This document shows, in pieces, positions 13,340 through 57,666 of a stretch of 64,000 nucleotides of DNA. Below the pieces are notes generated by a model, which did no database searches, was not told the DNA's origin, and was given only the letters and a program-made list of their open reading frames with translations. The DNA is from Octopus vulgaris (lineage: Eukaryota), in the NCBI GenBank assembly GCA_951406725.2, contig OX597833.1:44144001-44208000 (forward strand), in the 5' to 3' direction. Numbering within the stretch: position 1 is the stretch's first letter; every line of letters starts with the position of its first letter. The position numbers and the translations under genes are program-made.

Positions 13340-13672
13340 TTATTGAGATTGCAGATGTGTTACCTTCAAGCAATATTGATTTTGAAAACAGAACATTCTT
13401 AACTATAAAATGTCGGTATGCTATAGAAAATCTCATTCAGTTTTTTCTCGTGCGAAATCACAGTGAAGTTATTGTTCAAATCTATTATCAAAAAAAGACA
13501 CGAAGTTTTGCGGTAGTAAGCAGGAGAAAGGGTTTTGACTGTACTGTACCTAAAGTACCTGGAGATAAGAAAGGTGTGATTACCTGCTCGAAACATTATC
13601 CCTCTTGTGAGGATGCGACATACTACAAATGTTCAACATATAAAGAATCTTCAAAATCTAGACTTGTAAGAG
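13340..13672 (+). CDS. Copy A exon 2: Ig-like domain 1 (V/I-type)
   Basis: Acceptor ttttttctatgcag, donor AG|GTCAGT, 333 nt, phase 1-1. Encodes LTIKCRY ... ITCSKHYPSCEDATYYKCS (B-strand Cys and D-x-x-x-Y-x-C F-strand motif). Open in both copies. Confidence 0.85.
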
Positions 13673-13784
13673 GTCAGTTTACTCGTTCTATTTTTACTTC
13701 CGTTTCTTGTTTTGCACGTATTCAACTCCATTGTCTTTATTTTTATTTCTATTGCGTGTTTCTATTGCACTATCGAACACAAGT

Positions 13785-14144
13785 TTCATCCAGTCAGGTC
13801 AATTGCCCAGGCCAGCCTGACTACCTCTCTCCATCACTCCTGATCTTCCATTAGTGTTTTTAGGCCTTCAACTTGGCATCCAACATCTTCTGCAAGCTGT
13901 TGTATATATGTCTTCCGTGGTCTTCCAGTCGCTGTGGTACCGTGATTTGGTGCCCACAACAACTCCTTACTCACAAGTTTTTCTTTACTTCTCCAGCAAT
14001 GGTCAGCAAAACCCAATGTCCGCTCTTATATGATTGATGAGAAAGTTGATACATTCCCATATAACCTTTGTTTTGTTGGGTGCTCCCTCCATTAAATGTA
14101 GGGCACTGCACGTAACATTCTGGTGTAGGTACCGTCCAGCATGC
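13785..14144 (-). mobile_element. 3' fragment of an RTE/RTE-X LINE (also ~55970-56330)
   Basis: FADHCWRSKEKLVSKELLW.P.HG...GRPRKTYIQQL C-terminal motif. Confidence 0.75.
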
Positions 14145-14719
14145 ACATGCACTTAAGTCCCTCTCTTTCTTTTCTCTCTTTTACTTATTTCAGTCATTTG
14201 ACAGCGGCCATGCTAGAGCACCGCCTTTAGTCGAGCAAATCAACACCGGGACTTATTCTTTGTAAGCCCAGTACTTATTCTATTGGTCTCTTTTGCCGAA
14301 CCGCCAAGTGCATGTCTGTATATGCATGCATGAATGTATGTAAATATGTTTGCGTATGTGAATATATCTGTATCTATATATGTGTCCACATATTCATACA
14401 TGCGCACACACACACATACATACACGCACACACGCAAATATATATAATTGCACACAAATACATGCTTATGTGTAAGTAAATATACACGTGTTTGAATGTG
14501 TCATTCATCTGTTGTGGAGTTATTGCTAGTCTTTGGTTCCACACAGCCTTAGCACTGCTTACACAGTTAACCACTTCTAAGCAACAGTTCCCAAAGTCCA
14601 GGATTAACAATAATTGGAGTGTTGTCAAATGTTTTAGTCTTGTATGAAGATTGTAGTTTACATTAGTGAAACTACTCTTTTATTGTGAGGCCCTTTGTTC
14701 GAAGATAAGCATATTTCGA

Positions 14720-15155
14720 TTCTCTTTACTCTTTTTACTCTTTTATTTGTTTCAGTCATTTGACTGCGGCCATGCTGGCGCACCGCCTTTAGTCGAGCAA
14801 ATCGACCCAGGGTCTTATTCTTTGTAAGCCCAGTACTTATTCTATCGGTATCTTTTGCCGAACCGCTAAGTGACGGGGACGTAAATAAAACAGCATCGGT
14901 TGTCAAGCAATGCTAGGGGGACAAACACACACACACACACACACACACACACACACACACACACACACATATATATATATATATTTATATATATATACGA
15001 CAGGCTTCTTTCAGTTTCCGTCTACCAAATCCACTCACAAGGCATTAGTCGGCCCGGGGCTATAGCAGAAGACACTTGCCCAAGATGCCACGCAGTGGGA
15101 CTGAACCCCGAACCATGTGGTTGGTTAGCAAGCTACTTACCACACAGCCACTCCC
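14720..15155 (-). mobile_element. Composite SINE with internal (TA)/(TG) microsatellite (copy B ~56900-57325)
   Basis: ggctgtgtggtaagtagc...ggttcggggttcagtcccactgcgtggca head. Same family on the + strand at ~9492-9913, with partials at ~9005-9280 and 14160-14310. Confidence 0.75.
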
Positions 15156-54290: not shown

Positions 54291-55525
54291 GATCAATAAT
54301 TATTATATTGATATTAATATGAAAGGAAATGTTAAAGGAATATATTGGTACATGTATGAACTAAACTATTTCTTAGTTGTACACACAAGAAAAGACAAAC
54401 GACAACACAAATCAATACAAAATGTTCTAATTATTTTCTTTAGTATAAATTACTTTTTATAAAAATTGAATTTTTTTGCTTAACTTTTTGTAGTGTGGCT
54501 TTCTAAAGTCCATTTTTGAATAAATTATTTTAACAACAAGATTATTTGATAAAAATATTAAAATTTATTTTATATTTTGTCTCTATGAGTAGTATTCTAT
54601 CATGTTGTAGGGCTGTTCAGAAAAGGCAAATGACAAAAATTCTAATATTTTAAGACACTTGCTTCCCAGCTATATGGCTGGGAAGCAAGCGTCTTACAGT
54701 GACTGCTAGAGAGAGAGATAGAGAGAGAGAGAGAGAGAGAGAGAGAGAGAGAGAGAGAGAGAGAGAGAAAGAGTGAATGAGGCAGAAAGATTTCAATAAA
54801 TAAATGCATAGATATGCATGCATATATGCTAATGTATAGATGTATCAACCAATATATCTATATATATAAATTTGACTCTCTCTTTCTATATATGATATAC
54901 ATGTATGTATGTATGAATGTATGCATATATATATATATATATATATATATATATATATATATATATATATATATACATACATATATTCATATGTATATAT
55001 GTGTGTGTGTGTGTATGTGTAAGTCCGTGTGTGTGTCCGTAAATACGTACTTATGTATCAAGTTATTTTCAACTGAGACGTTAGAACCGTATTTAATACT
55101 TGAAGAGCTTAAATTGTGTGCATGTGCATATATTTACAACATTGATGACATCTATCACAGGTTTTTCCCATTGTGTTGATGAACTATTTTCTATGATTAA
55201 TAAAACTGTCGGTATTTTGACGACACAGGTATGTTAGTATAATAATAAATATCAAAAACTATCTGCAAAGTTTTATTTGTGGATAGATGTAATCCGTATT
55301 CACAACAACCGTTATTTTTATTGGTTCTCTTTTTCCTACTTCTGTCATTCTTCTTCTTCTTCTTCTTCTTCTTCTTCTTCTTCTTCTTCTTCTTCTTCTT
55401 CTTCTTCTTCTTCTTCTTCTTCTTCTTCTTCTTCTTCTTCTTCTTCTTCTTCTTCTTCTTCTATAGTTACATTTATATATTTTTTATAACATCTATATCT
55501 GATCTATGATTTTTTTTCTATGCAG

Positions 55526-55858
55526 TTATTGAGATTGCAGATGTGTTACCTTCAAGCAATATTGATTTTGCAAACAGAACATTCTTAACTATAAAATGTC
55601 GGTATGCTATAGAAAATCTCCTTCAGTTTTTTCTCGTGCGAAATCACAGTGAAGTTATTGTTCAAATCTATTATCAAAAAAAGACAGGAGGTTTTGCGGT
55701 AGTAAGCAAGAGAAAGGGTTTTGACTGTACTGTACCTACAGTACCTGGAGATAAGAAAGGTGTGATTACCTGCTCGAAACGTTATCCCTCTTGTGAGGAT
55801 GCGACATACTACAAATGTTCAACATATAAAGAATCTTCAAAATCTAGACTTGTAAGAG
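55526..55858 (+). CDS. Copy B exon 2: Ig-like domain 1
   Basis: Paralog of 13340-13672 with the same splice sites. 7 nonsynonymous differences. Confidence 0.85.
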
Positions 55859-57357
55859 GTCAGTTTACTCGTTCTATTTTTACTTCCGTTTCTTGTTTTG
55901 CACGTATTCAACTCCATTGTCTTTATTTTTATTTCTATTGCGTGTTTCTATTGCACTATCGAACACAAGTTTCATCCAGTCAGGTCAATTGCCCAGGCCA
56001 GCCTGACTACCTCTCTCCATCACTCCTGATCTTCCATTAGTGTTTTTAGGCCTTCAACTTGGCATCCAACATCTTCTGCAAGCGGTTGTATATATGTCTT
56101 CCGTGGTCTTCCAGTCGCTGTGGTACCGTGATTTGGTGCCCACAACAACTCCTTACTCACAAGTTTTTCTTTACTTCTCCAGCAATGGTCAGCAAAACCC
56201 AATGTCCGCTCTTATATGATTGATGAGAAAGTTGATACATTCCCATATAACCTTTGTTTTGTTGGGTGCTCCCTCCATTAAATGTAGGGCACTGCACGTA
56301 ACATTCTGGTGTAGGTACCGTCCAGCATGCCCTTAAGGCCCTCTCTTTCTTTTCTCTCTTTTACTTATTTCAGTCATTTGACTGCGGCCATGCTGGAGCA
56401 CCGCCTTTAGTCGAGCAAATCGACCCCGGAACTTATTCTTTGTAAGCCCAGGACTTATTCTATTGGTCTCTTTTGCCGAACCGCCAAGTGCATGTCTGTA
56501 TATGCATGCATGAATGTATGTAAATATGTTTGCGTATGTGAATATATCTGTATCTATATATGTGTCCACATATTCATACATAAGCACACACACACATACA
56601 TACACGCACACACGCAAATATATATAATTGCACACAAATACATGCTTATGTGTAAGTAAATATACACGTGTTTGAATGTGTCATTCATCTGTTGTGGAGT
56701 TATTGCTAGTCTTTGGTTCCACACAGCCTTAGCACTGCTTACACAGTTAACCACTTCTAAGCAACAGTTCCCAAAGTCCAGGATTAACAATAATTGGAGT
56801 GTTGTCAAATGTTTTAGTTTTGTATGAAGATTGTAGTTTACATTAGTGAAACTACTCTTTTATTGTGAGGCCCTTTGTTCGAAGATAAGCATATTTCGAT
56901 TCTCTTTACTCTTTTTACTCTTTTATTTGTTTCAGTCATTTGACTGCGGCCATGCTGGAGCACCGCCTTTAGTCGAGCAAATCGACCCAGGGACTTATTC
57001 TTTGTAAGCCCAGTACATATTCTATCGGTATCTTTTGCCGAACCGCGAAGTGACGGGGACGTAAATAAAACAGCATCGGTTGTCAAGCAATGCTAGGGGG
57101 ACAAACACACACACACACACACACACACACATATATATATATATATATATATATTTATATATATATACGACAGGCTTCTTTCAGTTTCCGTCTACCAAAT
57201 CCACTCACAAGGCATTAGTCGGCCCGGGGCTATAGCAGAAGACACTTGCCCAAGATGCCACGCAGTGGGACTGAACCCCGAACCATGTGGTTGGTTAGCA
57301 AGCTACGTACCACACAGCCACTCCCTGGCCTATTCGTTTTTGTTTTTTTCTTTTCAG

Positions 57358-57666
57358 TGAGATCTTTCATTAAGAAACTTGAATTTCTTAACCCGCCCGC
57401 TGAAGTAAACAAGCTAGCGATCTTCAGATGTTCAGCATACATCGGTGCACCTTTTGGCGCTACTGACTTTTTATGGAGTCATGAGACAAAACACTACAAT
57501 TGGATAAATGTGAGTCAAGTGCATGTTCGACCGCATGGAAAGTGTTTATCTCCAGCAGTGTCAATTAAGAAAATCGTTATAAGAGAGGGGGACATTGGTA
57601 ACTCATGTTCCGTCTCATGTTCCGTATACCGTGAATCACGCACTCTACAGCTCACCAGCAAAACAG
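57358..57666 (+). CDS. Copy B exon 3: Ig-like domain 2
   Basis: Paralog of 15188-15496 with QM->YN and S->R changes. Confidence 0.85.

Follow-up and report, generated by a model that had tools for sequence, protein, structure and literature searches.

Two neighbouring copies of an Ig-type gene, A and B, lie in the 64,000 nucleotides of Octopus vulgaris DNA analyzed here (contig OX597833.1, positions 44,144,001 to 44,208,000 of the forward strand; hereafter, the window). A preliminary description of this DNA had noted that every difference between the Ig exons of the two copies changes an amino acid, and had proposed diversifying selection on a binding surface. Does the pattern reflect selection, and if so on which domain, or could chance, decaying copies or an assembly error have produced it?

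Gene structure and the tandem cluster

A spliced copy encodes ~265 residues. Its signal-peptide-like exon is followed by two domains, of 110 and 102 residues, then by a stalk of 11 codons and a hydrophobic tail that runs up to the stop (Table 1; splice sites of the copies were assigned by reading the sequence). Exon 5 of copy B falls just past the end of the window, with its tail intact.

Table 1. Coordinates of copies A and B and of the elements between them, counted from the first nucleotide of the window
Feature	Position	Strand	Remark
Copy A exon 1, coding part	5155..5200	+	15-residue signal-peptide-like stretch, phase-1 donor
Copy A exon 2	13340..13672	+	V-like Ig domain (predicted); positively selected exon
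Copy A exon 3	15188..15496	+	Seven-strand C-like Ig domain (predicted)
Copy A exon 4	20782..20814	+	11-codon stalk
Copy A exon 5	22073..22200	+	Hydrophobic tail; 1-nt insertion near 22130
100-N assembly gap	30669..30768	.	Separates copies A and B
Orphan 3' half	31462..41576	+	Exon 4 at 31602, exon 5 at 33035, tail intact
Copy B exon 1, coding part	47065..47110	+	
Copy B exon 2	55526..55858	+	V-like Ig domain (predicted)
Copy B exon 3	57358..57666	+	C-like Ig domain (predicted)
Copy B exon 4	63951..63983	+	

AlphaFold models, in which runs of three or more residues were counted as strands, give the exon 2 domain an eight-strand V-like beta-sandwich pattern (pLDDT 91.5) and the exon 3 domain a seven-strand C-like one (pLDDT 89.8). 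The marks of the Ig superfamily are present: the two-sheet beta-sandwich, the B- and F-strand cysteines, and the D-x-x-x-Y-x-C motif, with C24, D91, and Y95 invariant in all 28 family members and C97 nearly so. Domain 1 has five near-invariant cysteines (C24, C67, C82, C89, C97), and the column that aligns with the C-strand tryptophan of the canonical V-set holds an invariant leucine, L36; we would therefore class it as V-like rather than as canonical V-set. Pfam returned nothing significant for the four A/B exon translations and scored ig in three of the 28 family members (best E 4.4e-5), and sequence comparison gave weak matches to TCR-alpha V (E 0.02). In the structural comparison, for which the Atlas model of a relative, P0009, stood in for the copy A domain, the nearest structures were V-set plus C2-set proteins (TM 0.53-0.58 by query). 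A GPI-type pattern (signal peptide, small-residue site, terminal hydrophobic tail, no cytoplasmic part) was recognized by eye only, and the best 15-residue hydropathy of the exon 5 tail is 2.05, below the 2.9-3.3 of five more distant relatives, so that secretion is possible. The protein is likely a two-Ig-domain, GPI-anchored surface protein, both the folds and the anchor being predicted. Five copies carry an N-glycosylation sequon in domain 1 (13388-13396, codons 16-18), which D and F2 have lost; a 3-nt insertion in exon 3 (~15437-15439), shared by copies A, B, and C and absent from five other close copies, gives domain 2 one more cysteine.

Four RNA-labeled runs were compared with the exons. 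One X16 contig aligns from exactly 13340 onward, its other 78 letters falling elsewhere, and one of X20 ends at 15494, with 212 further letters elsewhere; these breaks at exon edges are a weak hint of splicing. A comparison of RNA-labeled runs with 17.5 kb, which was swamped by repeats, gave no exon-joining alignment among the matches listed, and none of the runs listed as carrying the sequence is on record as RNA.

Within a tandem cluster of seven genes, no two copies are closer than A and B. Across the 258 kb examined around the window, seven full copies lie within ~230 kb, F1-F3 on the minus strand and D, C, A, and B on the plus strand, together with the orphan 3' half that follows the assembly gap and an orphan exon 3, here named E. 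Exon 2 has 42 matches in the genome, 41 of them on this contig, and exon 3 has 16. Homolog searches retrieved Octopus vulgaris hypothetical proteins and O. bimaculoides uncharacterized proteins only (4, 11, and 1 matches); one of the former is identical over the query. F3 carries a 2-nt insertion in exon 2 that shifts its frame.

The orphan 3' half differs from the 3' half of A by 0.56% and from that of B by 2.67%; A and B differ from each other by 3.01% over this part. Judged from the sequence, the orphan probably represents A's other haplotype or a copy whose 5' half sits in the gap. We also considered A and B as alleles and judged this unlikely: on one contig, B lies after an A-like 3' half, its own 3' half is 3.0% from that of A, and it is thus most likely a paralog. 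The insertion in exon 5 of A is absent from the seven other copies of that exon; it gives the tail a different end without the stop. A second insertion, of 2 nt, follows at 29997 in the next exon. The orphan half has neither, and the two insertions may be a real variant or a consensus error.

Several repeats surround these genes. Upstream of A, positions 448-1662 contain an inverted duplication of ~450 bp at 99% identity and a 200-bp direct repeat, both absent upstream of B. The first intron of B holds a G-rich insertion of ~2.4 kb (49321-51727) that A lacks, with 258-bp terminal direct repeats (96.5%) at its ends. What appear by eye to be degraded LINE-type reverse-transcriptase elements occupy 23400-28800 and a copy near 34300-39700; such stretches sit in the last intron of A, of the orphan half, and of B. 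The plus-strand array is flanked by rearranged repeats of 95-97% identity (contig positions 44089150-44093575 and 44227154-44235403), of which the downstream one holds the orphan exon 3 and both hold diverged exon-5-like pieces. Elsewhere on the contig (44.55-44.73 Mb), loci L026 and L028-L030 belong to a more distant subgroup whose stalks are rich in Thr and Pro. Their domain-1 sequences are nearly identical, the reverse of what the A/B subgroup shows.

Substitutions between A and B and across the paralogs

The counts given in the preliminary description are exact. Exon 2 has seven substitutions in 333 nt, all of them replacements (E15A, I32L, R54G, S55G, R61K, K71T, H85R), and exon 3 has five in 309 nt (giving Q>Y, M>N, and S>R), for a total of 12 base changes in 10 codons with no silent change and no cysteine altered; in exon 1 there is a further replacement, at 5182, and a silent change at 5193. 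The intron just after exon 2 does differ at only one of its first 467 aligned bases, as described, but this stretch is a picked low spot and the contrast drawn from it is overstated: intron 2 as a whole differs at 21/1500 positions and intron 3 at 60/4939, together 81/6439 (1.26%). The pair alone is weak evidence, as had been cautioned. With kappa set to 2, the probability of seeing no silent change is 0.068 for nine events and 0.092 for eight, falling to 0.028 only if all 12 bases are independent; likewise, the replacement rate set against introns gives Fisher P 0.034 (12 bases) or 0.21 (nine events). Three of the seven exon 2 sites do lie in the basic segment where clustering had been reported, which gives P 0.035 for that segment, chosen post hoc, but 0.27 for any three sites within eight residues; in A and B alike the net charge of domain 1 is +8, and four other copies have +7.

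Only five of the 12 differences are private to A or B; at the other seven, the A state and the B state both recur in other copies, so that not all are new mutations. At the Q>Y/M>N block of exon 3, A matches D while B matches C and E; judging from its sequence, the block looks like one transferred tract rather than independent changes. Six of the seven A/B sites in exon 2 coincide with positions variable in the remaining five copies, 44 of 110 in all (P 0.016).

More generally, the copies show a patchwork of shared variants. Among informative sites, neighbors show higher compatibility than in shuffled orders (P 0.0005 for 93 sites and likewise for the 45 intronic ones alone), and trees differ by region of the copies. 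Within either exon alone, the test was not significant (exon 2, P 0.26-0.86). Since the region is mosaic, we relied on tree-free counts for the seven copies, all taken from one assembly.

At the level of the family, positive selection on the outer domain is strongly supported. The tree-free count for exon 2 gives 69.8 replacement to 6.2 silent steps, a ratio of 3.96 (P 7e-5), which becomes 4.5 when A and B are left out (P 2e-4) and 3.9 without the frameshifted F3 (P 9e-5). A ratio at or below 1, which the preliminary description had held against selection, does not appear once more paralogs are included: in our own implementation of the codon models (GY94, F3x4), the M0 omega is 4.6, and 4.3-5.1 over all trees and sets tried, with 2dL 35 for M2a versus M1a and P 3e-9 for M8 versus M8a. 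Forty-eight codons change amino acid, against one that varies only silently, and changes by codon position (31/34/10) avoid third positions (P 0.001). Exon 2 divergence is 6.3-12.9%, compared with 1.5-6.1% for intron 2 (20 pairs other than A-B). Its replacement density (70/245 sites) is far above that of introns (127/1162; P 2e-11), whereas its silent density (6/85 sites) is not (P 0.36), which argues for raised replacement and not for an old or fast-mutating exon. Introns read as pseudo-codons gave ratios of 0.72-1.20 over six frames. Among the wrong-frame controls, reverse frame 1 of exon 2 gave 2.08 and one wrong frame of exon 3 gave 2.68; ratios near 2 are thus within noise.

The proposal of diversifying selection therefore stands for exon 2 across the seven paralogs, but neither for the A/B pair alone nor for exon 3, where positive selection is not supported. 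The tree-free ratio of exon 3 is 1.7 (P 0.17), its codon positions change evenly, and its replacement density is slightly above that of introns (P 0.04). A tree-based M2a on all eight copies did favor selection there (2dL 31.6); we rejected this result given the tree-free P and the M0 omega of 0.89 (P 0.059) without F3 and E.

Family-wide variation in exon 2 favors the predicted tip loops and the C' and C'' strands. With strands named from DSSP output and textbook V-set topology, 19 of the 25 positions in the predicted tip loops BC, C'C'', DE, and FG vary, compared with six of the 25 positions in the opposite loops (P 5e-4). Variation also reaches 12 of 16 positions in strands C' and C'', against 11 of 44 in the other strands; strand B is invariant among the copies. 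The seven A/B sites do not themselves share one face: four (32, 54, 55, 71) are placed at or near the tip and three (15, 61, 85) are not.

Read support for the A/B differences, checked over exon 2 in the contigs of four DNA runs among the 24 listed (contigs drop rare variants), is mixed. Both I32 and L32 are present, G54 occurs in X1, and X4, which bears another species label, contains the A-type R54-S55-R61 stretch and K71. E15 of copy A occurs in none of the four runs, all of which have the common allele instead; no match among their contigs carries G55 or K61 of B, or either state at 13595 (H85R). Some of the A/B differences, those at E15, G55, and K61, may thus be private alleles or consensus errors. 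The private variants of A, examined for an error signature, were too few to judge. Numerous paralog variants recur in the contigs of these four runs.

What drives the replacement excess

We infer from the sequence a binding role for the outer domain, and consider it reasonably probable that the protein sits on the cell surface and that a foreign partner which itself changes fast, for example a microbe or parasite, is recognized by it or binds to it; the tandem cluster, the selection on the outer domain, and the mosaic exchange are consistent with this. Duplication would supply new copies. In the tip loops and in strands C' and C'', selection would bring new residues to fixation, and short tracts would pass from copy to copy through gene conversion or unequal crossing-over. 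Selection and these exchanged tracts together would let every copy show a different surface on a constant stalk.

The explanation that dispenses with selection invokes chance, relaxed constraint in dying copies, or an assembly error or haplotype duplication at the gap. For the A/B pair by itself chance would suffice (P 0.07-0.09 by events), a gap and a near-duplicate 3' half do lie between the two copies, and E15 is without read support. For the family as a whole this explanation is largely refuted, and we give it very little credence: relaxed constraint or errors would bring the ratio near 1 rather than 4 and would not avoid third positions, the exon 2 result persists without A and B, the recurrence of paralog variants in other runs speaks against error, and B, as argued above, is unlikely to be an allele of A. 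If selection is accepted, its partner might still be a protein of the animal itself or of its mate, as in a gamete-recognition or allorecognition-like self/non-self code. The selection pattern cannot tell such partners apart, and Ig-superfamily genes lie within the Hydractinia histocompatibility complex (PMC9546547); a faint Izumo-Ig score in one distant paralog (E 0.13) is no real evidence. Mosaic exchange and a diversity that extends across many tandem paralogs would nevertheless fit a repertoire better than one polymorphic locus, and we hold a self or mate partner to be unlikely.

Somewhat less probable still is a neural or epithelial wiring code like that of Dpr/DIP, IgLON, or Beat, in which outer domains diversify to gain partners. 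The two-Ig, probably GPI-anchored layout is that of Dprs (PMC10084454), and a feature search on a relative returned many arthropod Ig proteins of 258-324 aa. Wiring Ig families are generally conserved, whereas the homolog searches for these genes retrieved octopus proteins only; the copies are very young, some are broken, and with an omega of ~4 this suggests rapid turnover. A foreign partner remains our preferred reading.

Comparison with known Ig families

Dpr/DIP/IgLON and Beat proteins share with the octopus family two Ig domains, a probable GPI anchor (Dpr), and expanded paralog sets, and Beats are reported to be transmembrane and not known outside arthropods (PMC10084454). We found no homology of the octopus family to any of them. 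The structures nearest to the P0009 model, the V+C2 ectodomains of CD200/OX-2, SIRP-beta, and butyrophilin, have nothing beyond the fold in common with it. They belong to chordate proteins whose C-terminal parts are longer, whereas a short hydrophobic tail closes the octopus proteins. Among molluscs, Biomphalaria FREPs have one or two IgSF domains and are diversified by duplication and polymorphism, and require a fibrinogen domain (PMC7588048, PMC13428168). The octopus reading frame differs from FREPs and VIgLs in that it stops ~35 residues past domain 2 with no fibrinogen domain, and none of six relatives has a C-terminal fibrinogen or lectin Pfam domain at the curated cut-off.

Our literature search, which covered few subscription papers, turned up no account of diversified Ig-type recognition proteins forming a family in cephalopods, and no paper in it names the gene identifiers of three O. 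bimaculoides relatives; the main text of a study of octopus mucus mentions Ig-like domains as a general category only (PMC11431876). A young cluster with an omega of ~4 on one domain narrows the residues and copies to examine for recognition of a microbe, a parasite, or a mate to a short list.

The octopus domain, with its five near-invariant cysteines, differs from the CEACAM N-domain, which is not known to have the disulfide. Sequence similarity to CEACAM N-domains was confined to a 22-residue stretch against CEA (E 0.13), with no CEACAM among the homologs retrieved, so that no homology to them was found. In layout, primate CEACAMs combine an IgV-like N-domain, one or more IgC-like domains, and in some members a GPI anchor; positive selection is concentrated in the N-domain, and gene conversion occurs between paralogs (PMC8860441). 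The predicted V-like plus C-like layout and putative GPI-type end of the octopus genes would fit this arrangement, and the octopus genes likewise combine outer-domain selection with mosaicism over the region. By analogy, the octopus family would work like CEACAM without being a member of it. We tentatively suggest, as a possibility that falls short of being probable, that octopuses own a germline-encoded, antibody-like repertoire: dozens of V+C Ig surface proteins, CEACAM-like and independently evolved in cephalopods, in which selection drives the CDR-equivalent loops apart and gene conversion re-deals them between copies. Because a selected N-domain and conversion are already known from CEACAM, what would be new here is the family and the lineage, not the mechanism.
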